From contig CM097887.1 of assembly GCA_044892525.1 (NCBI GenBank), forward strand, positions 11,346,001 through 11,410,000: a DNA stretch of 64,000 bases. Direction: 5' to 3'. The DNA is from Schmidtea polychroa (taxonomy: Eukaryota). Both the position numbers and the translations under genes were made by a program. Every line of letters begins with the position of its first letter. Position 1 is the stretch's first letter. Shown here piece after piece: positions 23,695 through 44,030 of the stretch. The notes below the pieces were generated by a model. The model was not told the origin of the DNA. It saw only the letters and a list, made by a program, of their open reading frames with translations, and did not search any database.

Positions 23695-24129
23695 CAACCA
23701 GGTTCTCAAGAACTTATATCTAATCAGTAAAAATTATTATTATTATTATTATTGTTTCAGTAGTAATATCAGTTTAAATTTCTCCAGCTTATTTCAAACC
23801 AGATTATGTACNNNNNNNNNNNNNNNNNNNNNNNNNNNNNNNNNNNNNNNNNNNNNNNNNNNNNNNNNNNNNNNNNNNNNNNNNNNNNNNNNNNNNNNNN
23901 NNNNNNNNNNNNNNNNNNNNNNNNNNNNNNNNNNNNNNNNNNNNNNNNNNNNNNNNNAATGTTTCAGACAGTTTGCCCCAACATATATTATCGTTGTTGC
24001 TCAATGGTATTATTATTATTTTAGAATTTTATTTTTATTCACCACAGTGCTTTTAATATAAGGAAAAAACGGTCCTCTTTAGGGCCCCAAAAAAAAACTT
24101 TGAGAATGTGTAAAATAAGAAGCATTTAT

Positions 24130-25283: not shown

Positions 25284-25397
25284 TGTTTCGACCAGTTAGA
25301 GGGGGAATGACATTTACCACTGACTGGCAGTTTGTTTGCTGAGAGTATCGCGTCCGATTCTTGTTAGTGTGCGCAGACAGACGCGAGAAGTAGGTTT
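25284..25397 (-). repeat. Conserved double-hairpin terminal module, copy 1 (others at 31595-31765 and 40740-40872)
   Basis: All three copies share TGTTTCGACCAGT.AGA.GGGGAATG.CA.T.ACC.CTGACTGG and GTGCGCA.ACAGACGCGAGAAGTAGGTT. Confidence 0.9.
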
Positions 25398-25689
25398 TTC
25401 TATTTTTTATATTGTGGTTTATATTAATTTGTAGAATAGAATTGATTGTTTTCTGGAAGAACGGAATTTTTGTTTAAACGGGTCTTTTGGGTGAATTTTT
25501 TGAAATGAAGAATCCAAAAGAATCGTTTGAAAATGTTATTAAATCAATCTTTTTAGTTTTTAATGGACAAATTGCATGTTTAGAATTAAGCCCAATGTTG
25601 GCGTATGTGGGGAGAAAAGAAAAATTGTTTCGCTAGATGTATCATCACATTCATTCGACTCAGACCTTTCCCCAACTTCATCGATATTC

Positions 25690-25791
25690 CCTCGTGTGAG
25701 CCCGTGGCGATGTTCCACGTTGGTGATGCCCACACGGGTGGGAGTTGGTTAGCAGGTGAGCCCCTGCCTTAGGACTACTATTAACCCACTC
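25690..25791 (-). ncRNA. Conserved structured RNA element of unknown class (unit A copy)
   Basis: Helices GGUUA/UAACC, GCAG/CUGC, CGUGUGGGC/GCUCACACG and GUGG/CCAC covary with the unit B copy at 36757-36858. Confidence 0.6.
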
Positions 25792-26116
25792 GCGGTTCGG
25801 GTTCCACGGTGCCTTAGGTCTTACCCATAACCATACGTACAACTCGGTCCGACCCTGGTCCAAGGGGACGACCTCTAACCTAATGGCTTTCGTTCAAAAT
25901 CACCCTTTCATTCACACTGACCACAAATTTATACCTATCGAGAATTTACCATAATGAAATCAAACAAAAATATATTGAAGCCATAAACAAAATTACGCAC
26001 ACCAATTACAAAATCAGCAAAGTTTAAATCAATCAAGAATATACAAGGCTGTCAGTTTTCTAAACAAAATCCATTTGCAGTTCGAAAGAAAGAATCAAGA
26101 CCGATTGCAAGTTACT

Positions 26117-26878
26117 TTACACGAAATCTTCTCCTTCGGCAATCATCTCATCGATGTCGACTGGTAACCGACGATCCGATATAAATTTGAGGCCTTCGGC
26201 CGGAATTCTTCTAAAGACTTCTTTCGAGGGGATGGAATGGGTGGAAGATATTTCTTTGATTGTTGATTTCGCCGCAGATAAAGACGCCTCGAGTGCTGCC
26301 ATTGCATCTCTACGTTTCTGATTCTTTTCTGCTCTGGTGGGCCGTTTGCGTTTGCGAGGTGGCGGATTGTTGTCTACTGCAGATGTGACGACGGGTGCCA
26401 CAAGAACTGGAGCCAGGATAGAATCAGAAGGACCGCCTGCCATTGGCCGATAACCCGACAGTACCGGGGCTGGGATGGGCGGCAGATGTGAGCCGTGCCC
26501 TTGGCAGTTCGAGGTGGAAGATGTAGATGACTGGTGGTGAAGAGGAAAAACATTTGTTCCATCCAGGACGGGAAATTCTCGCACCCGCTTGGCCAGTTCC
26601 GCCTCCGTGTAGAACTTGTGGAGGGCTTCGGACTGGGCTTTGATCGTGAGCCTTTGACAGCGGCTCTCCTCCAGGAGGCTGTCTCGACAGTGCTCCAATC
26701 TGAGAATCTTAATCCGCTCTTCCTTCATCTGTGGCGGGGAGAACCAAGTTCCTTCGTATAGATCTATACGCTTTTTGAGAGCCCCAATGTAAAGGTGGAG
26801 TTGGGCTATATCCGCGTTCTTGTCTGCACAAGAAAAACACGGGCGAAGTTCCTTGATAGTGTTGGACGGTGTTGACAT
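26117..26878 (-). CDS. Unit A ORF, 253-aa coiled-coil protein (CxxC, basic NLS-like patch, acidic tail), family unknown
   Basis: Intact and GC-richer than its flanks. About 52/80 identical residues (my count) with 37142-37891 over the N-terminal domain. A YAG acceptor (CCTTCAG) lies immediately before the ATG. Confidence 0.8.
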   Translation of the reverse strand: MSTPSNTIKELRPCFSCADKNADIAQLHLYIGALKKRIDLYEGTWFSPPQMKEERIKILRLEHCRDSLLEESRCQRLTIKAQSEALHKFYTEAELAKRVREFPVLDGTNVFPLHHQSSTSSTSNCQGHGSHLPPIPAPVLSGYRPMAGGPSDSILAPVLVAPVVTSAVDNNPPPRKRKRPTRAEKNQKRRDAMAALEASLSAAKSTIKEISSTHSIPSKEVFRRIPAEGLKFISDRRLPVDIDEMIAEGEDFV

Positions 26879-29799
26879 CTGAAGGTTTAATCAGTTTTTA
26901 TGCGTAGCCGCAATATTCATTTGAGTGGTATTTACAATTTGGAATGCAGGCTTCAAAATTTCGTCAATCATACCGTTCAACGAAACCCCAAAACAACTCT
27001 TTACCCTATCTCGGCACTCACATTCATTTAATTATAAAACATTCAAATTAATTCACCCAATCCCAGTAATTTGAGAAAAAGAAAACGGGGAATCCTCGAA
27101 AAATAATTTACTTGATATAAAACTCAACATTTAGGTTTACTTTCGGATTGGATAGTTACCATTTGTTATTTTATTTGTTTGTTATTGTCAATTCCACCCC
27201 CTTTATTATATTTCGTAATATTTAATAATCCAAACCTTGTTACCGTGATTTGTTGATTTGTACATGCATAATGTTATAAAGTCATGATTCGGTGTCATTA
27301 GTGTCTAATTGTGAGGTCTTAATTCTGATCAAAGCTATAAAAATCAACATCTATTATTTAAAAATGTTTTAAAAATTATACGGTAATTACTTTAAGCAGT
27401 GCGCCGTAAACGTCGTCATAGTGACGCCTACTCGTATGTGACTGTGGGTTATCATTAATTCCTGCTGTGTAGATTAGTGCGTCATTGTTGTGTTGATCTG
27501 GGTATATGCATTTCATGAGTTATTACCTATCTGCACTATTAGAGAAAATTGCACGTCGTGTTAATTCGCGATGTGGTCCAATCCTTGCACACAATCTCGC
27601 CATCTCAGGCACTATCCATATCATTATGTAATCGTGATGTCATCGAAAAATTCACTGTTTAGATTTATTACTATCCTACCGGGTGGGAATTTGGCTATAG
27701 TGTGCCTGAATGCGTGTATTCTCAAGACAAGGTAATTGGAGGAGAAAGCTGAATCGTTACGAGTATGGGGCAAATCCGGAGAATAACGAGTGAACTAGAA
27801 TCGATAATCAGATTTTCTATCGTGTTGTTGACTCAAGACAACAACTGTCAATGCGTTCACTCAACAATCGTTGCGGAAATTAGTATACTATCTCTCCCAT
27901 CAGATTATGGCTGGTCATCTAATACGGTTAACTATAAACTGGCTAAAATTCGTTCAACGATTAACCGATAACGCTGACAGCGGTTTCTCTTATGCCTGTA
28001 GTAAGTATTCTGATAATTCATCATGATTTGTTTACTTTATTTTCAGGAAGAAAATGCTTATCAGTAACCCAAGAGTCAATAATTCAGTCTAAAAGTGCAT
28101 CGACGATGGATTTAGCAGCTAACGTCCTGGCGATCCAAACCTCGAAAAATTCATGGTGACCGTTTACTGGAATCTTATTCTAATTTTCGCGTAACTGAAG
28201 ACTACTATCCATGGTTGTTCAAGTAACTGCGATTCGAAGACTTAAGGAATAGTCGTGTCAAATTGGAATTTAATGAAATACCATCGCACACGGTGATGAA
28301 GATTTTTGGTTTACAGTTTCTCCGGGAGTCTCTATGGATTTAACATTAGCATCAAATGTCGTAGTTTCCAATTCTCTATGGACAGTACTTCCCATGCCGA
28401 TCACTGATCTCACTCGGTGAAAGAATCTCTCTCGATGCATTTATATCTTCCGCCAGATGTCCTCACCCCTCCTGACTCACCCAAGAACGGCATACATTTC
28501 TGCCACCGCTTAGACCGTCAGGAGGGACGAATCTATCTCTTCCATCTTCAAAAATAAATTGATAAATAAAAAAAATGGAATAAATAAATCAATTCTACCA
28601 AAATATTATTACAAAATGAAAATCATCTACCTGGCGACCGCGACGTCTGAGCTTCGGATATGATGCCTCATGCTACAATGTATTTCTCTCTATCATTTGG
28701 ATCATAAAATGCTGCATTCCATAGAAAATTACTCGGTTGACCTCAAGGAATTAAACTTCTCGTATCCATTCCCATTATGCTCCTCGCAATTCCTCCCCAT
28801 TCGCCGCATCACATCCGATTCCCAGACGACACCGTCGTCGGCACCATAGAAAAAGAGGCATCTTTGTGATTCAAATTTTTATTTAAATAAAATTATTGTT
28901 ATTGTTCATTATTCCATCATAATATACTAAACATTTATCATACGAAATTCAATCACTTACCAAAATTTCCCCTGAAAGTGTTGAAAGTATAAATCAAAGT
29001 GCCTCGAATAGTTTTCCAACTGAAATATTTGGTTCGTTAAAACTCGATCTCTGTCCGGTAAGTTTGAGTAAGTTTGAGTCAGTTTCCGATAGATGGTTCC
29101 TGTTCAATGCTATAGTATTGACTATGAAGTGGTTCTGTAGAGTATTTGTTAAAGTGGTTTGATAGGTTGCTAACTAGTCCTGTAGAATACTCGTTGAAGT
29201 GGTACCCAAAATTAACAAAAATTTTACCTGTAGAATACTCGTTAAAGTGGTACTCTACAGATATTTCGCATTCCTTTTATATTATTTTTCGTCCAATCAG
29301 GACACGACTTGTTTGTAATTTTATTATTATTTATATGTTTTTTATTATAATACACTGGATTTTAATGACCTTATCTATTTTTTGTTATTATTTTATTTAT
29401 TTTCCTATTTTTTATTATTTTCTCTTGTTTTTCCTGCGGATTTTTTGCTATTTCATTGTAATATAATTTTTTGTTATAATTAGTCTATGCATTTATTTGA
29501 GAATGGTTTTATTTCTATTTTATTTTCTTAATTTCTCGTTTATTTTCTTAAAAATTTTTTTTATTTTATTTTCCTTTTATTGTTAGGCTTATTGGGTGAT
29601 TTTCTTTTTATCTTATTTTCTTAGAAATTTTATTATTTTTATTTAGTTATTCCTATTTCTTTATTGTTATTTAATTTGTTTTTTCCTATATTTCTCTGTA
29701 GTTCTCTGTGAATTTTATTTTTTATTTATTCTATTCCTTCGTGTGGTCTCTTTTCTCATCTTTGACTCGACTTTCAACACTTCCAGAGCTTGACCCAAC

Positions 29800-30466
29800 A
29801 CCAAGTTGATGACAGGCTAATACACTAGGTTCAACACGAACACTTCGTACCAATAATTTTGCATCAACTCTGACATATTGGTCTCCCAGTTGCAGAAGTT
29901 AATGTTAGTGCGGAATATGATCTTTTCAAACGCATATGGACATTAACTCCCGGGAGTAAATATTTAGGCTGATCCATAAAGTCGAGTTGTAATGATGAGC
30001 ACATGGTAAATTATTTTGAGCCCTTAATCCACAATTTTCGTTCATTATCTGTAGCTGCATAACCCATTGGAGTAAGACAAGTATTTTTAGTATTGGTATT
30101 ATAATTTAAAATAGTTTCAATTATAGCCTTGTGAATATATGTATTGTTTCCACCTTCAATCTTGATATTATTAAAACCGAGAATAGAATCTTTAAAAAGT
30201 GTATGAAACAAGAATTTGTTCGGTATTACATCTGTAGCTTCACCCAAAGCTTTTTTATCTTTATCTACAACCTTAATCTGAACAGTTAATAAAGTATCGT
30301 TCAACTCCAAATATTCAGTTTGACTCCCGTTAATGTAAAATTCAACATCATTTCTACTATCTGTAAGAGAATTCATAGGAAATACTTCTTCAGAAGCCCG
30401 ATATTTAATTACGGCTTGAGGTGATGGTCGCTCAAATATACACAATTCAGATTTACCACAAATCAT
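29800..30466 (-). pseudogene. Polinton major capsid protein, N-terminal half
   Basis: CGKSELCIF..P.Q..PMNSL..VEFYING...EYLELNDT..FLFHTLF..NNTYIHKAIIETILNY..K; after a stop, LQLDFMDQPKYLLPGVNVHMRL..LLVRSVRVEPSVL. Confidence 0.85.
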
Positions 30467-30495
30467 TTTTCAAATATAGTCCCATGTCCTCTCAT

Positions 30496-30822
30496 TCATT
30501 TGTTTATATGCGACGACCGATGTTCTTTACGTTTTGCAACAACTGGTTTTTCATCTTTTTGAAACAGACCTGCAACACCGGGTAAAACTTTCCCTATTTC
30601 AGCCATGGCATTTGTTTTCAGAGATGGTAATATTTTTTGATCATTCATTATCACATCTTTAGCAGTTTTCATTCCAAAACTACCAAGACGTTTAAGAATC
30701 GGAAGTGCAAATCTACCAATGGTTCGCAACCAGCCAGATTCATATTGTTTCCCGATAAAATATTGTAAATCTCCGCCTGTTTGACTACCACTATACATAC
30801 TAATAATATCGCTATTAGCCAT
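30496..30822 (-). CDS. Small Polinton virion protein (pVI/cupiennin-like amphipathic peptide precursor)
   Basis: QTGGDLQYFIGKQYESGWLRTIGRFALPILKRLG resembles the Q.G.G..L..L.R.A.P.LK motif of the ORF found beside MCP in Polintons and adintoviruses. Confidence 0.6.
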   Translation of the reverse strand: MANSDIISMYSGSQTGGDLQYFIGKQYESGWLRTIGRFALPILKRLGSFGMKTAKDVIMNDQKILPSLKTNAMAEIGKVLPGVAGLFQKDEKPVVAKRKEHRSSHINK

Positions 30823-30829
30823 CTATTTT

Positions 30830-31075
30830 TTGAAAATGTAGAGTTAGATGAGATTTTGTATCTTTTGGAAAGTTGATCAGTTTCCCGCTATCATCGCGTA
30901 TATTTATTTCTATATTGTTTATACATGAGGTTGAAATATATACACCTTTCATTTATGAAAGGTGAAGCAGATATCTTAGATATTCGAACAAATAATTTGG
31001 TTTTTTAACTTTTTCAATTTTTCTATCAAGGTACAAATAACTGTATTTTCTGAGGAAATATCAACAGATCTAAAT
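30830..31075 (-). pseudogene. Polinton penton (minor capsid) C-terminal remnant
   Basis: NIEINIRDDSGKLINF...SHLTLHFQK matches IEI.IRD..G..I.F.....VTLHFK. Confidence 0.6.
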
Positions 31076-31079
31076 CCAT

Positions 31080-31551
31080 TCAGTCATCGGTGGGATGAAT
31101 GATTATAACTGTGTATGATTTTCGGCAAAACATGTATCAACATTTTATTTCCCTGGTGTACAAAAAACCGTTTGAGTTTATCTCTCTATGTCCTATTAAA
31201 TCGTTCAACATGAGCGGCTTTATATTGAGAATGTACAGTATAGTTATTTATTTTTGGATAATTTAAAATTTGACTAACTTTACTATAGTAAAATTCTTAA
31301 CCCAAATACGTTTGTAAATTATAAGGGTGACCATCGTTAAACATTGTTTTTATGGCTTGGCCCATATCATTAGCCGATTTTGTTTTTACGGGAGTAGCAC
31401 GAGCAAAACGACTGAAAACATCAATACACGTCAAAATATATTTGTAACCATTATAGATTTTCAAATACGGTATCATTTCCATCAAATCCATTTGCCATAA
31501 ATTGTCAATACCGAATGTCTTATATGCTCTGGTTGGAAATCTTTTCCTCAT
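31080..31551 (-). pseudogene. Polinton retroviral-type (c-int) integrase fragment
   Basis: RKRFPTRAYKTFGIDNLWQMDL..NGYKYILTCIDVFSRFA..P.KTKSA..LQT..G.EFY. N-terminus lost. Confidence 0.88.
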
Positions 31552-31594
31552 TGGTTTGTTTAAACTGTATGCCAGTTGTCCCGATAATAGTTAC

Positions 31595-31765
31595 TGTTTC
31601 GACCAGTCAGAGGGGGAATGTCACTTACCTCTGACTGGCGGCTTGTTTGGAGGTTTTTGCATCGCGTCTGTGTGCGCGGTAAGATTGGACCGAGTTTTGT
31701 GAGTGTGCGCGGTAAGATTGGACCGAGTTTTGTGAGTGTGCGCACACAGACGCGAGAAGTAGGTT
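31595..31765 (-). repeat. Terminal module copy 2, with an internal 33-bp tandem duplication
   Basis: 11-bp stem CCAGTCAGAGG/CCTCTGACTGG and 16-bp stem TCGCGTCTGTGTGCGC/GCGCACACAGACGCGA enclosing (GTGTGCGCGGTAAGATTGGACCGAGTTTTGTGA)x2. Confidence 0.9.
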
Positions 31766-32099
31766 GTTTTTTTATAGTATAGTTCGGTTTTTTAGATTTG
31801 ATTTAGAATTGAGTGAGGTTGTTTTAAAAAGAGACTTTTTCTGGAAGAAAGAGTTACTATTATTTGAATTTCAATGAACAACCAAATTGATCCTGGTTCA
31901 GTTGCCCCTCTGTTATTACAACGGAAATAAATGACATGAAAATTGTAAGAAATTAATTAAAAGCTAATTAAATATTCAAAAATGTAAAATCAATAGTTTT
32001 GAGCAGGGATGGAGTCGATTGTTAAACGAGTACACCTTTTTTGAGACATCACTGTCGATTCTCCACCCACCATCGACATACTCGGCCAAGCAACTGTCA

Positions 32100-32680
32100 C
32101 AGTTTATTTTGTCTATGTATAATATCTCCATTATTCTTTCTTCATTTTTCACCAATTCAATATTCCACACTTTCCCCAGTTGCATTTCATTTAGTGACCA
32201 GTTTTCACTTAATGTTCTCATAAGCAATCTACAATGTCGTTCTCTGACTACTTCAGGTTTCAATTCCACAATTGACGCATTGTCTTTCATGTACATCTTT
32301 AGAGGCGTGCGAACGAGTTCAAGTGATGCGTGTTGTTTGAAACTGTTTGATAATTCGTTCAATTTCTCGGATAGATCCAAAACTTCTTATGCATTTTGAA
32401 CATTCTGACGCCCTTCTTTTAGTCTATTAAATTCCCCTTCAACGATTTGAATATTATTAACTGCTTCTTCAGGTGTCAGATCTCCTGCTGTTGGTTTTTC
32501 TTTTTCCCAATTACTCAACATTTCTGTTGTCTTTGGTTCATCAATTTTATCATCTGATAATTTTATGATCTGACCAGCCCGACAAGCCTCGTCTTGCTTT
32601 ACCCATGTATTCATTTTTCCTTTTATATTTTGTGTGTTCGTAATGACGTTAACTAATTCGTTAGTTCCTCCAGAATAGAA
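32100..32680 (-). pseudogene. DYNC1H1: Cytoplasmic dynein heavy chain tail-region fragment, intronless, with internal deletions
   Basis: TTEMLSNWEKEKPTAGDLTPEEAV..EGEFNRLKE and QHASLELV..LKMYMK.N..IVELKPE.VRERH..LM..L...W...EM.LGKVW..EL.KNE match dynein-1 heavy chain. Premature TAA at 32387. Confidence 0.85.
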
Positions 32681-32819
32681 TAATTGCTAATCTAATTCAT
32701 TTTGAGCTCTTTGCTCTTCATTAGAAGCCTTACTCCTGTCGAGTTGGGTTTCCTCAATTTCCCAAAATTCCCGTAACTCGTCATTTAACTTTTCCGTTTC
32801 CGCAAAATAACTCTATCAA

Positions 32820-35150
32820 ATGCAAACATCTTAGAGCTTGATTTTTGTAATGGCTTCCTTTTTTTTAATTTTTAGTAATAATTTTACAATGAAGAGTTAT
32901 CAAGTATTTCTTATCAAGTATTTAGGAAATGATACACTACTGTTATTAACATGCAATAAACAGTATCTTACTACACCAATGTTTCCAACCACCATATTGT
33001 CTGTGGTCCTGAACACCGTGAATAATGAAGATGCTTGCCATTTCTTTTTGTTTTAGAACTGACTACGATGTAAATGCCAAAGCGCTACTTGGGATTGTCA
33101 TGATTACACAGATGAAAATCATATCAATATGATTGTGAAAAGATGAGTTTTTAACACAATTTGTCAATTGACTTTCGTTTTTTAATAATGAAGAATTAAG
33201 TGATACTGTTATGTTGTGATCATTATTTTCCATTTTTGAGAAGTTATTGTTAAACAGATAAATCAGTTTATTTTCAATGAAGGTGACTTGCCATCGATGA
33301 GTTCGCTTTTCGCTTGCAATATTGAATTTTGATTACGAAATTTCTTGGTTTCGGTTCAGATACTGAGTTCGCTCTTAGTTGGTATTCGTTTAATACCTCC
33401 TGAATTTTATTGTTTACAAAAACATTTAGCCATTGTCTGACGCCTTGACGGATTGACACAATTATTTCCTTGTTCTCAATTTTTATTTGAACTTGGTTAG
33501 TTTCTTTAGCCAAGTATACTGCTTCATATTGACTTTGAACTTCTACCCATTGATTGGTCATATATGTCCCATTATCATGAATGAGTTTTTCGTAATAATG
33601 TATTGAAAGACTGTCGGTGAGATTTACTTGAAAATTTTTATATTTAACAAAACATTTTCTTTTATTTAATGTTTCAATCGTATGGTTTTGGAAAACAATT
33701 TTGACTTTCTGTTGCTCTTCTGCCTCTCAATATACATGAATTTCATTTATCATCGGTTCAATTTCATCAAAATTCCTCCACTCATTTTTCCAAATGTTAA
33801 TTTGTATAAGGTTATAAATTCTTTGAGTAGCGTTTGTTTGAACCACGTATTGTTTAATGGTTCAAGGTAATTTATAATTTGTTGTTAATCGACGCGCTTT
33901 TCTCATAATTCAACGTAACAGATGATTCTAAAGGATTCAATAGATTGCTAACTTCTATTTGTCATGATATTTCACAATGATATGTCCACACAATACTGGT
34001 AAACGTTGAATATATATAAATTTTATCCAATAAGGGTATTGTTATTCCACTTGCATTTGCTATGATATTTATTAAGACTACTGTTATAAATAAAACTTTA
34101 TTCATATATCCCAATGGCGTAGGGTTTTTTTGAAATTTTTGTTGAATGATTGTTCCATCGTTAAGTTCTTTTTGTTTTGATCGTAATTGATATTCCATTT
34201 CAGATACCTTTTTACATCGATTGGAATGAACTATAATTGTTTCTGCTCTTTTGTTATATATTGGATGTAACTTTAAATTAGTTGCCATAGCATCATACTG
34301 TGAATGAACCTTTGAATGGTCTTTGCAATTTTGTTGATAGGCCTTTTATTAGTTCTGGTTTGTTGAAATATACTAAATCTCCGATTTATATTCCATGCTC
34401 ATGCGCCTTTTTATCATAGCTTTCCTTGTATTGTTCTTGACGATACTTTATTTTTAACCCCATGCAGATTGTAATCGTTCTTGCATCATTACTTTATAAT
34501 TCTGAGCGTCCAATTATTGGGGGTTGAAATTCTAAATCAATTGGCATGTTGTTTCGTCTCAAATACATTAAATAAAAAGGTGTTTCGCCCGTACTCTCGT
34601 TAACTGCATTTAGATAGGCAAACAGACATGGTTTAATAAATAAGTCCCAATTCTTTTGTTTCCGATTCACATATGATGAGATCATATTGATTAAAGTACC
34701 ATTAAATCTTTCTACTAACCCATATGTCTGAAGGTGATTTATTCAGTTTGTAAATACCAAATAATTCTGTAATAGAGTTAAATAAATCACTTTGAAAATT
34801 TGTTCGTTGGTCTGTTAACAATTTCTTTAGAGCTCCATATCTAAATATAATCTTTTCGACAAATATTTGATCGACTATTTCTGCTTTCTGATTTGGTATT
34901 GCGTACGCCTCTGGTCATTTTGTTAAATAATCACAAAATACAACAATATATTTATTTCCATTTGTAGTCTCGGGTAAGGGCCCGATAATATCCATTACTG
35001 AAAATTGCATTGACGCTGCTGGTATTGGCATTGGTTTCAATGGAACCTTTATTTTCTTTCCCGTATTTCTTCGAGTTAGACAAATTTTGCACGTAGTATA
35101 CCAGTGCTTTACATCTTGGTACATTGTATTCCGATTCATCACTTTTATTA
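32820..35150 (-). mobile_element. Decayed gypsy retrotransposon 3' part: integrase followed by a possible env-like ORF
   Basis: CKIC..R..K.PL.P..MDIIGPLPETTNGNKYIVVFCDYLTK*PEA; RYGA..LLTDQ.TNFQS; WDLF..LFAY..NESTGETPFYL; IIVHSNR. A downstream hydrophobic leader (VLFITVVLINIIANAS) and Cys-containing fragments suggest env, which is weakly supported. Confidence 0.8.
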
Positions 35151-35154
35151 TACT

Positions 35155-36082
35155 TTAATATACCTTCGTGCTGGTTTTGCTCTTGGCGCGTTCGTTGAGT
35201 CTTGTTTGGAACGTTCTAAGCGTTTCGCCTATGTACGATGCGTCACATCTTGTGCAAGTGATTTGGTAAACAATGTTCTTTGAGAAGCAGAAACATTTGG
35301 TGGGGGATTGGCATATACAATCTCGATGAAATAGGTCTGATGTTAGAGATTTTTGAGACTTACGAAGCTGTGATTTCAAAGGTGCAGCAGTTGTAATAAT
35401 TGGGCGAATATGAACTGGCAGCACCATATTGCGAATGAAAGCTCTGATTGTATTACATGTCCATTGTTTAAAAAAGGAAGCGTTGGTATATTACTCGCTT
35501 ATTGATATGTTGCTTTTGTGTATTATGATGCCTATTAGAGTTATATTCACTCAAGAAGTATTTTTCTACGAACTCCTTTGGGTATCCATTTTGTAAAAAC
35601 CGTGTTTTAAAGTTTTCCAGGGTTTCTTGTGTTTTCGTTTTGTCCGAACAGTTCCGAATTGCTCTTTTTCTCTCTCCTACTAATAGAGTGATTTTTCTTT
35701 GGAGTGTAACGCGACTTTCCCACTGTGTAGACTTTTAGTGAATAAATCTGTGTTGAATGTGAGTGTGTTTGGACCTTCAGAAGGACTTATAATGGTATCT
35801 AGGAAAGCAATCTTCCCTTCTGGGTCAGGTAGCTCAAGAGTGAATTGTATATTAGTGTTAGTGGAGTTTGCATGTGCCAAGATTATATTGAGAGGTACCG
35901 TGGAGACTATGAAAATGTCATCAATGTATCTTTTCCACATCAGGATTTTATCTCCGAAAAATGATCAAAAATTTGATTCGAGATGATGCATGTAGAAAAT
36001 GGCTAAAATCGGCGAAAGGTTATTGTTACCCATAGCTAGACCATGAATTTGTTTGAACGGTTTTCCTTTAATTAATACAATA
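35155..36082 (-). mobile_element. Penelope-like element RT plus C-terminal GIY-YIG endonuclease (5' part in the gap)
   Basis: KQIHGLAMGNNNLSPILA; WKRYIDDIF; IQFTLE..IAFLD; ERKRAIRNCS..NGYP; CFSKNIVYQITCTRCDASYIGETLRTF.TRLNE. Frameshifted. Confidence 0.92.
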
Positions 36083-36756
36083 NNNNNNNNNNNNNNNNNN
36101 NNNNNNNNNNNNNNNNNNNNNNNNNNNNNNNNNNNNNNNNNNNNNNNNNNNNNNNNNNNNNNNNNNNNNNNNNNNNNNNNNNNNNNNNNNNNNNNNNNNN
36201 NNNNNNNNNNNNNNNNNNNNNNNNNNNNNNNNNNNNNNNNNNNNNNNNNNNNNNNNNNNNNNNNNNNNNNNNNNNNNNNNNNNNNNNNNNNNNNNNNNNN
36301 NNNNNNNNNNNNNNNNNNNNNNNNNNNNNNNNNNNNNNNNNNNNNNNNNNNNNNNNNNNNNNNNNNNNNNNNNNNNNNNNNNNNNNNNNNNNNNNNNNNN
36401 NNNNNNNNNNNNNNNNNNNNNNNNNNNNNNNNNNNNNNNNNNNNNNNNNNNNNNNNNNNNNNNNNNNNNNNNNNNNNNNNNNNNNNNNNNNNNNNNNNNN
36501 NNNNNNNNNNNNNNNNNNNNNNNNNNNNNNNNNNNNNNNNNNNNNNNNNNNNNNNNNNNNNNNNNNNNNNNNNNNNNNNNNNNNNNNNNNNNNNNNNNNN
36601 NNNNNNNNNNNNNNNNNNNNNNNNNNNNNNNNNNNNNNNNNNNNNNNNTTGGCTGTTTCGTTCGTGGCTAGTCTAAAGGTTGATTGCCCGTCCTGCATAG
36701 AATACTCTCACATTTCCAACCCGGAGTAGAACCCCCCCCCATAACTTGCACTCCAA

Positions 36757-36858
36757 CATAGTGCCCGTGAATTGCTTCACGTTGGTACTGCACTATGCAG
36801 GCGAGACACTAGTAAGCAGGTGAGCTTCTGCCTTAAAACTACTCCTTACTGAGGCCTC
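36757..36858 (-). ncRNA. Conserved structured RNA element (unit B copy)
   Basis: Helices AGUAA/UUACU, GCAG/CUGC, CAUAGUGC/GCACUAUG and GUGA/UCAC. The linkers AGUAGU..UAAG, GCUCAC and ACCAAC are conserved with unit A. Confidence 0.6.
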
Positions 36859-37141
36859 GACTTCCCATACTAGACGGTCGATAGAAGGGCTTACGTCATT
36901 TCGAACTATCCGAATATCTCAATTACCGGTAGATTTAATGCCAATTGGCTGACACTCATCAAACTTCGAAAAAATCTATGTGCATTTCTATGTTCAACCC
37001 TTACAAATGAAAACAACTGGAACAGAATAAATTTATTTCTTTTTCAAATATAAACAACACAAATTAATATACACAGTTGGAGGGGCCATACGAAGTAGTA
37101 ATAATGCAGTCGATATTCACTAGACTTTCTGCTTAAGAGTC

Positions 37142-37891
37142 TCATTTTCCCCACTCGGTATCTCGTAATAAATCATCGATGTCGAAGAATTCAGAAGCGT
37201 TTTCTTCCGATACTACGCCTGCGGCTGATATAATTCGCGCGGGGACCCCAATGGTCAAGTCGATCACCGCGGAACTGGTGTTTTGATTGGTCGGATTTTC
37301 CGCAGAGGCCTTGCTCTGACTACCTAGATTGCGTTCGCGCTGTCTCTTTTTGCGCTCCGCACGTGACAGTTGTTTGCGCTTAGGCTTGTTCGGAGCGGCA
37401 GTTTGTTGAAGCGTAGTTGAGGTGGACGTACTAGGGGTTAACGCCTTGCTAGTACCCCTGATGATAATATCTGGCTGCTTGGGCGACAGTTCTGCTTCGA
37501 CGCAACCTTGACAAGACCTTTTGAGCGGTGGAGACAGATTCGAGGAAGTATTATGATGAGGAGGGAAGATATTGTCGGCTTCTTTGATTGGGATCTGTAC
37601 GATCTTCCGTGTTGTGGCTGCTTGCACGTAGACTTTGTGCAGCGCTTCTGCCTGTTCTTTAATAAGACTTCTTTGGGCACGGCTCTCAGATATTAGTGCG
37701 TCCCGGCAATGCTCGCTACGATGGAGCTTCTTTTGGGTCTCCTTCATTTGAACGGGGGTGAACCAAGTGCCCTCCAACTCATCTATCTTCTTTTTGTATC
37801 GCCCGATTTGGGTTTGTAGATCTTTGATAATGGCGTTTTTATCCGCGCATGAGAAGCACGGACGTAATGCTGATGTAGTGGCTGGTATCAT
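37142..37891 (-). CDS. Unit B ORF, 249-aa paralog of 26117-26878
   Basis: LRPCFSCADKNA..EGTWF.P.QMKE..EHCRD.L..ESR.QR..IK.Q.EALHK.Y is shared, as are the basic patch and the DIDDLL tail. Intact frame. Confidence 0.8.
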   Translation of the reverse strand: MIPATTSALRPCFSCADKNAIIKDLQTQIGRYKKKIDELEGTWFTPVQMKETQKKLHRSEHCRDALISESRAQRSLIKEQAEALHKVYVQAATTRKIVQIPIKEADNIFPPHHNTSSNLSPPLKRSCQGCVEAELSPKQPDIIIRGTSKALTPSTSTSTTLQQTAAPNKPKRKQLSRAERKKRQRERNLGSQSKASAENPTNQNTSSAVIDLTIGVPARIISAAGVVSEENASEFFDIDDLLRDTEWGK

Positions 37892-40739
37892 GCTTGTTAT
37901 AAAGAATACTAATGAAATGTAGAATATACTATTTTCGAAACAAATTAGATACGACCCACGGCCATTCGTGGATGCTCGGCCGATGAAAAGAAGAGAAAAC
38001 TTATTCTACAATCCGGTTTTACTACAGATCTTATTTACTAAAACGGCTTATTTAACCAAATGCTATCGACTTGGCAAATGCTATTGCCTTCGATTCTCTA
38101 CTGATCTAACTGTATACATGAGGGATGTAGTAGTTAATAGTATTATAAGTATAATATTGACAAGGTAATGTAATAACGCTTTAGTAAAGGGAACATTATA
38201 GTATTCAATCAAAAAATTTTATAGGTTCTCTATTTTAATTTATCAAAAACAAATTACGGGTATTTCGCTAAACTAATTAGTGTGGAACTATCGCTATCCC
38301 TCAACATATTTTAATTCAAAATTCATTATTGGAAGTACTTTATTGATTCAACAGTTAATTTGGTTATCTGTGCTGTCTACTATTTATCTGGGAGAACGTC
38401 TGAAAGTTTTTCACATGTGCGTGAGGATTCCACATCAGCTGTTGCCTTAACACCCTAATTTACATTATTTCGTAGAGATGGGAAATCTCACCGGTCACGA
38501 CATATGTCTAAATTTACTGCTACTGATGTTGACTAGTTGATTTTCCCTAAAAATTGTTAAATCGCTTACGAAAACTTAGCAAGTTATATATTTAATTATT
38601 TTTTTAAAAAAAAAAGAAACTAATTCAATAGTAAAATTTGATACACTTCCACCTTTAATTCATTATATTTAATTATTTATTTGCAAAACACCGAGTTTAG
38701 GAATTTCAACAGTTGGGCTTAAGAACGTACAATCGCGCAATAGCGGTTATCATGACTCGGTATTCATTTTCTCTGTGGCCGATGATTCTTATCTAATCAT
38801 TGGAAACTACTGGCTGCGTGTTGGCAAGAAGTTCTCATGTCAATCGGTAATTGTGAACTCGCTTATTGCTGAGTCTAATCGCAGAAAAAACAAATGGGTG
38901 ACACATGGAAAATTTTCTCATCTGATTACGTTAGTAGTGACGACATTATCGCAAATGGGTGTATACCGATGGATTCATTCCGGGTCTTGTGATCGGTGTG
39001 TGCCGGTGAGTGTAGTTACTCCACTAAATTCTAATCCGATTAGTATTTTTGATTGAAATTCCTGATGTTGAATTCACTGAGTTGATCTTAGCCAATATGA
39101 AAAGTTTAGTTGTCAATCCCATCTCGTCGTTATTGTTGGATATACTACTTTTGTGGATATTTTATTAAATCATTCGGAATGCCTTCTCTAATCTCGACTC
39201 GTTGATGACGATTATTTTGGGAATTTAGCAGGTGAATTTTCATGCACTGGCCTACGTATAGGCCGTTCGGGGGTAGTTTTTATTTTATGTAATAATAACC
39301 AAAATATAAATTTTATATGTGTTGACTTGTCTTCAATTGAAATCTTTGATTATAATCTACCACATGAATCTCCTACTGTCAGAATCGGTGTTCCAAAAAT
39401 GAAGTTGCTTGTGTAACTGATGGTGAATGGTCGTTTTGAAAAGAGGAAACAATTTGGCGATATACGAGGTTTACCCTACTGACGGAATTAAAGTATTTCA
39501 AATCGGTGGCCGAAGATAAAGAATTTTCGCATGCGAGTGTTGTAAAATCGTTGTTAATACGAAGGTGATAGACCCGCTCAGTCACTGTGAACTACTACCC
39601 TTATTCCAATAAATCAGATATCACTACACTCCTTCGGTTCTACTTTCCCATTTTTTATTCTAAGTCACCTTCAGCGATTGGACCCGTGAAGAAGCCTTCA
39701 CATTTCGGCCCAATCTAGCTGCGTGATTGAAATACTCCATGTCCACCGGCTGAGCTCCCGAAGGCACCTCATACCATGAAATGGAGTATCTCAACTCCAC
39801 GTTACTCATCAAATGAAAATTCATAAACTCTCTAATTCAAATAATAACACATAGACATCTGGATAAAAATTATTTATTGGTTCTATAATACTTAAACATG
39901 CAAATTTCATTAAAACATTAAAAATTACTAAATATGGAATCAAATGAAGAGAGTTAACTAAGATGTTTAATCGCTAATATTTAACATTACTATTGACTTT
40001 GAAAGTACTTAAATAAATCGATAAACAAATGAAATACTCCTTACTATTGTTTAGGCTGAGTCAAAATTCAATGTTGTTCGTTCCAAATAAGTCTAATAGT
40101 GGTCCGTCGAATGTGGATTATGGTGATGAATAGTATTTCAGTCCCTGAACTGGTTTCGAATAGTTGTGAAGTTTTCTAAATAAAGGTTGCTTGGCTAGTA
40201 GTGCTTTTCCTTGAAATAGAATTCCGTGAATAGTGAATGTCTATAAAATGCTCGGGGTTAACAGTAAACTTTAAACATTCTCTCTTACCTATAAAATGCT
40301 CGGAGTTAACAGTAAATTTAATGATTTTGGTGGTTGTATATATAGCAAATTCTTATTTGTGCGGACCAATCAGAGTTGAGTACCGCTTATTTCTATTAAT
40401 TTAATATAATTTTCTTGTTTTTAGGTTGTTTTTCCTTATTTTCTTTATTTTTAATGTTTTTCTATTTATTTCCTTAATTTCCTTATTATTTCTTAAATTC
40501 CTCCTTATTTATTTGTCAACTTGTTGTTCTATTTTAATCTTTTCTTAATTTTATTTTTTTTTTTAATTCTTATGTCTTAATTATTATTTTCCTTATATCT
40601 TATTCTATTTTATCTCTGATTTCATTTATTTTATTTTTATTTTCCTTAATGTTCTACTTTCTTACTTTCTTATTTTTCAACGATTAAATTTTCGACTCAG
40701 CCCAACATTATTATTATTATTATTTATTATTATTATTAT

Positions 40740-40872
40740 TGTTTCGACCAGTGAGATGGGGAATGTCACTCACCTCTGACTGGTAGTTTGTTCGACGTTT
40801 CCTTTTGTTTCGCGTCTATGTGAATGGATCGAATATTGTTGGGGTGCGCACACAGACGCGAGAAGTAGGTTT
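40740..40872 (-). repeat. Terminal module copy 3, followed on the minus strand by an (AAT)n tail (about 40707-40740)
   Basis: Same motifs as copies 1 and 2. It abuts the 5' end of unit B. Confidence 0.88.
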
Positions 40873-42039
40873 AATTGTTTTGTTTTTTGATGAAATTGAG
40901 ATTTATTTGTAGAGAAATTATGATTTCGTTTGTCTGAATAAAATAATTGGAATTGTGTTCTGAAACTTGTAAATTTTCGAATTGTTTTCTGGAATTGTGA
41001 ATGCTTTATAATTATAATTGTTTATCTGTCATTCGAAACCGGAACGTCATTTTAAAAAGGCAGTGCGGAAAATTCGTCAGTATCAAAATATATTACTGAT
41101 TTATAGTCTTTTAAACTCTTTTTAATAAATTCAATTGAAAAAATAATCAGTGGTGAAATTNNNNNNNNNNNNNNNNNNNNNNNNNNNNNNNNNNNNNNNN
41201 NNNNNNNNNNNNNNNNNNNNNNNNNNNNNNNNNNNNNNNNNNNNNNNNNNNNNNNNNNNNNNNNNNNNNNNNNNNNNNNNNNNNNNNNNNNNNNNNNNNN
41301 NNNNNNNNNNNNNNNNNNNNNNNNNNNNNNNNNNNNNNNNNNNNNNNNNNNNNNNNNNNNNNNNNNNNNNNNNNNNNNNNNNNNNNNNNNNNNNNNNNNN
41401 NNNNNNNNNNNNNNNNNNNNNNNNNNNNNNNNNNNNNNNNNNNNNNNNNNNNNNNNNNNNNNNNNNNNNNNNNNNNNNNNNNNNNNNNNNNNNNNNNNNN
41501 NNNNNNNNNNNNNNNNNNNNNNNNNNNNNNNNNNNNNNNNNNNNNNNNNNNNNNNNNNNNNNNNNNNNNNNNNNNNNNNNNNNNNNNNNNNNNNNNNNNN
41601 NNNNNNNNNNNNNNNNNNNNNNNNNNNNNNNNNNNNNNNNNNNNNNNNNNNNNNNNNNNNNNNNNNNNNNNNNNNNNNNNNNNNNNNNNNNNNNNNNNNN
41701 NNNNNNNNNNNNNNNNNNNNNNNNNNNNNNNNNNNNNNNNNNNNNNNNNNNNNNNNNNNNNNNNNNNNNNNNNNNNNNNNNNNNNNNNNNNNNNNNNNNN
41801 NNNNNNNNNNNNNNNNNNNNNNNNNNNNNNNNNNNNNNNNNNNNNNNNNNNNNNNNNNNNNNNNNNNAATACGCAAACTATCAATCATAAAATTTGTCAA
41901 AATTTCAACAAGCCCTTGAAAATTAACTTGTAAAATTTTTATAAAAATTGTTATTATCAAATAAATGTGCATAAATAATAATACTTAGGATAATTTACAA
42001 CTGATTTTATAGTTTTTATTTGATAACTTTATAGTGAAT

Positions 42040-42330: not shown

Positions 42331-43399
42331 TATTTCTGTAAAGACAAAAATATTGCAGATCATTTTCCCGATTCCTTGATTGTGTTAAAGTTTTTCATTT
42401 ATATCAATTATTTATACCAAATATTTATTAATATAGTATAACAAGGGTGGATATTTTCAATGATTTCAGTGATAGATTACGAGATCGATATAAAGAACTT
42501 ATTGCGCTTCAAATACTCAATTAAATTTTGGTTTATAAATTTAATATAAAACAATATTACATAATTTTAATATAAAATGTACTAACTTGAATTACATGTC
42601 ATGCAAAAACATAACTAGATTCATTTCCTATTCATTTTCCTATTCAATTACTATGTCATCCACTTCTACAATATAAAAAATAAATTATGAAATATTTAAC
42701 ATACAATAAAAATTGTATTAAATAATTAATAAATTTTTCATTTTTAACATTTACTTAACAAAGAACTCTCTAAATAAAATTTCAAATGTGATTAAAACAA
42801 ATAAATTTAATAATTGTAAATAATATAATAAACATTTAATATATATTATTCTAATTAATATTTTTTTATAACCTTCGTAAATCTATATTTTTTTTAAATG
42901 AATAATTTACAGTAGTTATTGAAATAATGAGAAAATACAATATAATCTTAAAAGTTTGGAAAAATAGTTGAGATTAAATGACATCAATTATAAATTGCAC
43001 AAAATTTCTAAAAACAATATTGTTAGATGAAGAATACTTAAATATTCTGTTTCCAATGAAATCTAACCATGATATTTATAAATTCTAATGTGAGACATGT
43101 CTCTTATAAACGTTGGTACTGTGTTATATATAATCATAAACTAGGGTAAGTATGAGGAGTTTTACTCCTGCAACTGCTAGGGCTTTACATCCAATACTGG
43201 TTCTTGTCCAAATTAAAATTAATAATAATGAAAATTTGAAAAAATCAATGTTTAACTGGAGCCTGTACGTGCAACTCTGAGAGCTAGATTAATTACTTTA
43301 TGCGGCTCCCTAAATACTGAAAAAAACTTTGAAATTGTACGTTTTCTTTATCGCAAATTTATTCTGTTAAAATAAAATAAAATATTTAATTCAAAATAT

Positions 43400-44030
43400 C
43401 TAACAATAAAAATGGAATGTAAAAATGGCGCAATCTTTTTTTTGGCGTTATAAAAAAGAAAAATTTGACATTATTGTTGGCGTTTGGCAGCTTTCTTAGC
43501 CCTTTTACTTGGCATTTCTGGGCGAACGCTTCATGTGTTGTAGGCCGTTGTAGAATTTCATTGGCCGGAGAACTTGACACATAAAGATTGATCAATGGTG
43601 ATGACTGCCGGACACTTGACGAAGGTATAGGTGTAGCGTGAACAGATGAGGTTACCAGTATGGAACATCTGCTACAGCAGAAGGCCGTTTGAAAGTGTCA
43701 CTGCAAGAAAAATGATGAACTGGGATGGGATTTGTCAGTTTTGCTGATGAAAGCCCATGAATTCGATGCGCCAATTCTTGTTGGATATATACCTGATAGA
43801 ATGTTTGAGATTGCTATTGTATCAGCGTGCCTTAGGCACGACTTTCTTCGATTAGATTATCCCTGTAGTGCTCCAGGCGGAGCACTTTCTGGGTTGATTC
43901 TTTCATGGTGTACCATGTTCCTTTCATTCTGTCGATTTTCGCATTCAATAATCAGTTGAGTTCGGTTGAGCATGTTCTTGTCTGAATATGAGAAGCTGGG
44001 TCGGATTTCAGTTCGGTCTGAGTTATTTTC
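43400..44030 (-). pseudogene. Unit C ORF, third (disrupted) paralog of the coiled-coil ORF
   Basis: EIRPSFSYSDKN; after a frameshift, KIDRMKGTWYTMKESTQKVLRLEHYRDNLIEESRA*..QSQTFYQVY; basic PSKRAKKAAKRQ. A degenerate copy of the RNA motif (AGUACCAACGU) lies at about 43090-43200. Confidence 0.8.

Follow-up and report, generated by a model that had tools for sequence, protein, structure and literature searches.

The 64,000-nucleotide stretch of Schmidtea polychroa DNA analysed here (GCA_044892525.1, contig CM097887.1, positions 11,346,001 to 11,410,000 of the forward strand; hereafter the window) carries two copies, A and B, of a structured RNA motif. An earlier note on the window had described this motif as a candidate ribozyme or internal ribosome entry site (IRES). 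We find that the fold is real and selected, and that it extends beyond that first description. Judged by their sequence, A and B are the ends of solo long terminal repeats (LTRs), each of about 4.1-4.2 kb, of Burro-type giant gypsy elements, and the fold motif makes up the final ~275 nt of the LTR. The earlier note correctly placed the motif ~300 nt behind an open reading frame (ORF), but it missed that both copies are LTR ends. The predicted fold has four parts, three hairpin domains and a long helix. Because it is kept in thousands of copies beside a tRNA primer site, we consider a role in packaging and priming likely, and more so than ribozyme activity or ribosome entry.

A covarying fold at the end of the LTR

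The domains of the fold in the two copies, and the poly(A) signal predicted upstream of it in B, are as follows (positions within the window; minus strand shown as -).

36872..36898 (-): B, P1 hairpin, with a 3-bp covarying stem, a GUAAG/CA internal loop, a CC/GG stem and a 7-nt loop of the UUCUA type (alignment columns 28-48)
36802..36859 (-): B, P2, with an 8-bp covarying stem, a conserved internal loop GAGU/CACCUG and an apical AGU-NN/NN-GCU, from folding and covariation
36754..36800 (-): B, P3/P4, with a covarying stem, an asymmetric loop containing ACCAAC and a variable hairpin closed by GGGY, from pattern and covariation
36649..36745 (-): B, U5 tail, with RUYRU (36745-36741) and a G-run, the 5′ strand of the closing helix in 5′ LTRs as seen in paralogues linked to a primer site (B being a solo LTR)
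25693..25828 (-): A copy of the fold, with P1 at 25828-25806 (loop partly deleted), P2 at 25791-25742, P3/P4 at 25736-25693 and a partly deleted tail
37032..37037 (-): AATAAA, predicted poly(A) signal, the hexamer lying about 135 nt before P1 of B

The genome searched for further representatives comprises 781 Mb and includes four large contigs. The candidate set held 163 copies, which fell into 46 clusters at 85% identity. We aligned 46 rows by sequence only, namely 41 cluster representatives together with A, B, L207, L095 and L143; near-duplicates of kept rows (L007, L188) and copies with internal deletions (L029, L097, L150) were left out. RNAalifold predicted 27 pairs on these rows, 23 of them with double changes. 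In a 34-pair model, 87.5% of 1,556 pair cells were paired, compared with 68% after shuffling and 34-42% in slid registers. When covariation was scored by a G-test with average product correction against 40 tree-aware null alignments, 4 pairs were significant at E<=0.05, so that the covariation first noticed between A and B is borne out in the larger alignment. Predicted helices contained 11 of the 12 top-ranked pairs, and in this test of 46 rows no significant covarying pair lay outside them. The strand is also indicated by wobble pairs, as the earlier note had claimed for the ORF-sense strand: G-U/U-G cells number 182 versus 45 A-C/C-A cells, or 106 versus 44 after subtraction of two nearly fixed wobbles. 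Folding of single copies gave z values of -1.8 for A and B in the sense orientation and of -0.7 and +0.4 in antisense, which is weak when taken alone.

Most of the helices drawn earlier are recovered in A and B, including GGUUA/UAACC versus AGUAA/UUACU, the long P3 stem and GUGG/CCAC versus GUGA/UCAC, and the segments described as fixed linkers (AGUAGU, GCUCAC, ACCAAC and GGGY) are present in both. The proposed GCAG/CUGC stem survives in part. Its outer pair forms in 31 of 46 rows and loses to the competing P2 pair, which forms in 42, whereas the inner three pairs (YAG/CUG) are complementary in 41, 39 and 38 rows with few double changes; as aligned, they could at most represent a pseudoknot, and covariation does not support it. 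The P2 apex covaries instead: columns 88-99 and 89-98 are each paired in 40 of 46 rows, with 16 and 14 double changes, and the minimum free energy folds of A and B both choose AGU-NN/NN-GCU. The P1 loop, which we take to resemble a T-loop, has U and A at the corresponding positions at the loop ends in 42 of 46 rows. A candidate pseudoknot between this loop and the GAA that follows was rejected, as it showed no covariation. Two further points of the first description had to be revised. The AAGUU..GGGG segments of A and B do not occupy homologous positions, A having lost part of the tail, and so do not constitute a fixed linker; and the true start of the element lies ~40 nt further 5′, where the extra hairpin P1 is found, while its other limit is the LTR end.

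Genome-wide, an exact 28-nt motif pattern gave 893 matches, compared with 0 for the reversed control, and a looser pattern for the P4 hairpin gave 8,652 matches versus 529 with its control. Within lineages, no other part of the final 1.45 kb of the LTR is as conserved as the motif (80-92% versus 12-78% elsewhere). A model of the fold found exactly one match per LTR and none internally in four long elements, and it found no match in an unrelated gypsy element of the window. Copy A scores 128 bits with this model, of whose training set it is a member.

Burro-type elements that carry the fold

The LTRs of the window and the ORFs that they encode are the following.

36649..40707 (-): visible part of solo LTR B, which starts TGTTGGG; the end, placed from paralogues, is 69 nt after the ATG at 36698 and ~19 nt into an N stretch
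25596..29800 (-): solo LTR A, 4,205 bp, with both ends defined and flanked by a duplicated TTGG target site; the insertion lies within a Polinton capsid-like gene
37142..37891 (-): LTR-encoded ORF of B, 249 aa, with an Arg/Lys-rich patch; no Pfam family; an intact element has it in each of its LTRs
26117..26878 (-): LTR-encoded ORF of A, 253 aa, with ~51% identity to the B ORF across the N-terminal 125 aa
43046..43211 (-): decayed copy C, behind a broken LTR-ORF remnant (~43480-44000)

An intact element with a period of 26 kb has a 3,859-bp LTR with which LTR B is co-linear. Seventeen paralogues of LTR B terminate in CCCCAACA, 16 of them 69 nt from the ATG and one at +46, and beyond these ends the flanks are unrelated, except in L017, where the primer site follows. 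The gene interrupted by LTR A is presumably a Polinton capsid gene, although it has no Pfam match. Neither of the ORFs located ~300 nt upstream of the motif in A and B matched a Pfam family. At least 150 close relatives of the B ORF occur in the genome, many of them paired ~26 kb apart. Three long elements have direct repeats of 3.9-4.2 kb that are 99.6-100% identical and recur with a period of 26.0-26.4 kb; a fourth long locus is a larger duplication carrying Polinton-like ORFs. In three families, AGTAGT is located 205-213 nt from the 3′ end of the LTR. An element with an LTR co-linear with B encodes, in one long frame, a gag zinc knuckle, a fusion glycoprotein, and then protease, reverse transcriptase (RT), RNase H and integrase. 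The same layout, with the fusion glycoprotein between gag and pol, is described for Burro in the portion of the account consulted (PMC6431247). The giant gypsy-like LTR retrotransposons Burro/GYPSM1, as presented there, share with the elements described here the ~26-kb period, multi-kilobase LTRs, the fusion glycoprotein, accessory ORFs and thousands of copies. Burro elements are both abundant and expressed in planarians, according to excerpts of a second report (PMC8532177). In the leader behind one 5′ LTR (L069), an ORF of ~160 aa ending in a RING-like Cys/His segment is followed by a GC-richer block common to two families, then by tandem repeats, and then by gag.

A decayed copy had been proposed earlier at about 43090-43200. 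Copy C is a decayed LTR, because a remnant of the same LTR ORF (blastp E 1e-8 to 4e-10) precedes it, but the fold itself scores only 5.2 bits there (E 0.07, 1 kb searched with filters off).

The fold is also carried by a smaller element. This copy, at G000:C1:5728807-5744374 (L222-L224), has a period of 13.9 kb and 1,645-bp LTRs that are 99.6-100% identical; its single ORF is gag-like with a zinc knuckle, and it lacks homologues of env, pol, RING and the LTR ORF. This short-LTR gag-only element is likely to be a non-autonomous Burro derivative, and it retains both the motif and the primer-site junction. Its family supplied about half of the first 30 primer-site loci.

Several neighbouring features deserve mention. 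A broken Penelope-like RT and GIY-YIG remnant (35155-36082, minus strand) adjoins LTR B amid gypsy integrase debris and constitutes a separate insertion. The possibility that the motif belongs to the 5′ untranslated or intergenic region of a Penelope element was rejected, since this remnant lies beyond the end of LTR B and does not follow the paralogous LTRs. A ~150-bp repeat with two hairpins occurs in three copies (25284-25435, 31591-31784 and 40736-40913), one of them directly beside LTR B. At ~40240-40330 (minus strand) a TATA-like box precedes a short exon, a donor and an exon repeat ending in AG, as judged by eye only. Among Polinton-like gene remnants at 24066-24111 (plus strand) there is an Rfam match resembling the histone 3′ stem-loop (E 0.0086, under the gathering score). 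An antisense splice donor (CUCACCUG read backwards) was considered and rejected, as no antisense ORF was common to A-type and B-type LTRs among the matches listed.

Primer site, transcript position and proposed function

Behind 5′ LTRs a 7-nt spacer leads to a primer site that forms a perfect complement to the last 18 nt at the 3′ end of genomic tRNA-Pro(UGG) together with CCA. There are 601 exact LTR-end/primer-site junctions, 38 more in LTRs with ends of the AGCA type and 1 with another pattern, and among those listed 97 of 100 junctions have the same spacer length. In retroviruses this spacer is 0-3 nt, shorter than the 7 nt found here. The spacer mostly reads TGATTTT, and TAATTTT in LTRs ending CCAGCA (L151-L217). 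When copies were retrieved by the primer site alone, a pattern search found the motif in 59 of 61, the exceptions being L157 (a deletion) and L207 (a divergent copy). The abundant divergent family with a GTTGA/TCAAC hairpin (L120, L121, L132, L225-L227) keeps the fold and has a different end; one pattern for its primer-site junction gave 3 genome matches, and 0 with the usual spacer. At G000:C1:130.90-130.95 Mb (L181), tRNA-Pro(UGG) genes form a tandem 475-bp array, and the T-arm pattern has 2,161 matches genome-wide.

The LTR end is itself predicted to be part of the structure. A conserved RUYRU ~25 nt after P3 is complementary to the last LTR base and the first four spacer bases, and the junction folds onto this element, 87-112 nt upstream, in 54 of 61 primer-site-linked copies. 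Where the junction reads UAAU (22 copies), the partner base is U and never C in all 20 paired copies, 18 of which belong to one family. In two families, a change from AC to GC at the LTR end accompanies a change from GU to GC. A 13-pair junction helix that we named is 85.9% paired in 17 representatives, compared with 36-48% in slid registers, with C-G/U-A/U-G exchange at two pairs. As the spacer lies outside the LTR, the full closing helix can exist only at the 5′ end of genomic RNA.

Hexamers suggest that the fold lies in U5, behind the poly(A) site. In 15 of 46 families AATAAA precedes the ACCAAC anchor by 170-330 nt, and most of these hexamers lie at -248 to -286; a control window has AATAAA in 3 of 46. 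A-type LTRs have AATATA or AATACA at -243 to -253, and 35 of 46 families have some common hexamer variant.

We propose that the fold probably acts in cis as a signal for packaging of the unspliced genomic RNA and for priming of its reverse transcription. This model draws on the presence of the motif in both LTRs, its covarying stems, the tRNA-Pro primer complement and its retention in the gag-only copy. Transcription would begin in a distant upstream part of the LTR, the poly(A) site would fall ~110 nt before P1, and spliced mRNAs for accessory ORFs would skip the motif; if start, poly(A) site and splicing are so arranged, the motif would be present only at the 5′ end of full-length RNA. There, RUYRU and A|UGAU would form a helix spanning the LTR boundary, and 1-3 bases would stay unpaired ahead of the primer. 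Gag, through its zinc knuckles, and/or RT would be the putative readers of the invariant loops AGUAGU/GCUCAC, ACCAAC and UUCUA. RT would open the closing helix just after it starts, as described for retroviral U5 stems. Of the functions suggested in the earlier note, a selected cis-acting RNA is upheld and recognition for packaging or reverse transcription fits best, internal initiation is disfavoured, and self-cleavage is left with no match to a known class.

Several observations weigh against the packaging and priming model. The R/U5 border is placed from hexamers only, and 11 of 46 families, including the short-LTR family, have none in the expected window. RNAalifold gave no consensus on the tail alignment, where a gap falls inside the helix, so the helix was scored as we had named it. 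Nothing physically links P1-P4 to the closing helix, and they could therefore have a separate function. In 18 of 46 rows a GAACCCG-like segment can pair along its whole length with tRNA nt 49-55, and 38 of 210 permutations do as well. The invariance of the loop bases is overstated and partly built in, because most copies were fetched or filtered by patterns that hold the conserved words. Retention in a gag-only element refers to one copy examined in full. Pairing like that of a primer activation signal (PAS) did not rise above chance, the best Watson-Crick score having P 0.99 against shuffled tRNA. Pairing of ACCAAC with the tRNA 5′ end was rejected, as it fails on the genomic tRNA sequence.

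The fold might instead serve RNA processing or export, either by suppressing the poly(A) site of the 5′ LTR or by licensing export of unspliced RNA in the manner of the Rev and Rex response elements (RRE/RexRE-like), possibly through the Arg-rich LTR protein or through U1 at the GUAAG of P1. Such a switch would suit a fold located just behind the poly(A) hexamer, and a very long R would require read-through of the 5′ LTR. GUAAG is found in most families, and an LTR-ORF homologue lies upstream in 30 of 46 representatives (31 matches, one from a neighbouring element). However, P1-P4 are identical in both LTRs and cannot alone distinguish 5′ from 3′, several families replace GUAAG by ACAAG, ACAAA or GCAAG, and the short-LTR copy that lacks the LTR ORF retains the fold, though the protein could act in trans. 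We regard this explanation as unlikely.

Somewhat harder still to credit is the idea of a compact U5 domain with a tertiary fold that is catalytic or binds tRNA. It would then be either a self-cleaving ribozyme of a new class, akin to the twister-sister loop, or a platform built on a T-loop that recognises the tRNA-Pro primer by its shape. The ribozyme version, if true, would have no precedent in the LTR of any autonomous enveloped animal retroelement. Short of proof of catalysis or tRNA capture, the fold is only moderately surprising, since LTR elements can be expected to have structured leaders.

It seems improbable to us that the fold or P2 acts as a self-cleaving ribozyme, whether to cut read-through transcripts downstream of the 3′ poly(A) site or to set an RNA end. 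Unpaired invariant bases do lie inside covarying stems, and the P2 strands GCUCAC and AGUAG resemble the GCUCAA and GCUAG of twister-sister-like loops (5/6 and 3/5 positions), with the same C-G and U-A pairs, as those loops appear in excerpts of PMC11620745. The P2 loop nevertheless exceeds a 5x6 loop, and it carries an A-to-C change at the sixth position, a change that nearly abolishes activity of the LINE-1 ribozyme in the same excerpts. The fold has no covarying pseudoknot, and cleavage in U5 of genomic RNA would sever R from the primer site. Rfam contains the hammerhead, HDV, twister, twister-sister, pistol and hatchet ribozymes and the HCV/pestivirus-like and IGR IRES families. At E<=10, no Rfam match was obtained at the motif in A, B or nine other loci, in keeping with the earlier failure to fit the structure to hammerhead, HDV-like, twister, pistol, hatchet, SECIS or IGR-IRES consensus.

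An IRES for the ORF downstream of the 5′ LTR is the least credible explanation and can be all but set aside: a multi-domain structure does lie upstream of an ORF in a polycistronic element, but 14 primer-site-linked families have no conserved AUG behind the fold and several short upstream ORFs, no frame is open for a non-AUG start (the longest stop-free frame after P3 spans 10-72 codons in 9 copies), the first long ORF is 400-630 nt away (240-480 nt past the LTR end) and in 9 of 10 copies has an acceptor-like AG 2 nt upstream of its ATG, a copy without that ORF retains the fold, and there are neither IRES family matches in Rfam nor covarying pseudoknots. The ATG at 36698, thought to open a frame into the assembly gap, is indeed present 69 nt before the LTR end, but in the primer-site-linked paralogue L017 the frame stops after 23 codons.

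Comparison with known systems

The RNA fold in Burro LTRs is real, selected and of an expected kind, and it is apparently undescribed. The literature found, supplements excluded (which for the Burro papers could affect this assessment), contained no RNA structure in Burro LTRs and no description of Burro cis signals. The part of the Burro/GYPSM1 account available (PMC6431247) covers protein domains and does not mention LTR RNA structure or the primer site. New here are the junction helix spanning the LTR boundary, together with the compensatory changes in it, the corrected P2 apex, the retention in a gag-only element, and the negative outcomes for an IRES and for tRNA contacts. Searches with exact patterns for homologues outside this genome gave 0 and 1 matches in a viral collection, 1 in a metagenome and 0 in prokaryotes, with no full-length homologue; in the single viral and metagenome matches only a pattern-length part of the model fits, and we treated both as chance.

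Ribozymes are established components of retroelements, with hammerheads in retrozymes and Penelope elements and HDV-like (hepatitis delta virus-like) ribozymes in R2, L1Tc and RTE among the cases given in excerpts of PMC6765202. These resemble the present fold as structured RNAs in a retroelement terminal repeat. They differ in that no hammerhead or HDV core was found here, and in that they free the RNA by cleavage, which is not obviously needed by an LTR element with a promoter, R and a primer site. The likeness to twister-sister and twister-sister-like ribozymes, so far as PMC11620745 was consulted, is an internal loop in which a GCUCA strand faces a UAG strand. The loop here is larger, matches 8 of 11 core positions, has an extra U opposite the first G and lacks an Rfam match; the 5x6 loop GCUAG/GCUCAA between two stems was not found.

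The closest parallels are retroviral leaders, for which the excerpts consulted (PMC3185550) describe a U5 stem and PAS in HIV-1, a long hairpin before the primer-binding site (PBS) in HIV-2 and an avian contact between U5 and the TPsiC arm. In both systems structured RNA lies between the poly(A) site, here a predicted one, and the primer site, with a long hairpin directly before the latter. The fold differs from these leaders in showing no sequence or Rfam likeness to them, in its 7-nt spacer, in extended tRNA pairing that does not rise above chance, and in three extra conserved domains inside the predicted U5, which is far more elaborate than in the retroviruses studied. The fold provides a sensitive marker for all Burro-type LTRs, non-autonomous ones included, and a testable, covariation-backed model for the selection and priming of a 26-kb retroelement RNA. 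On our best reading, it would work like the U5/PBS structures of retroviruses without belonging to any family modelled so far.

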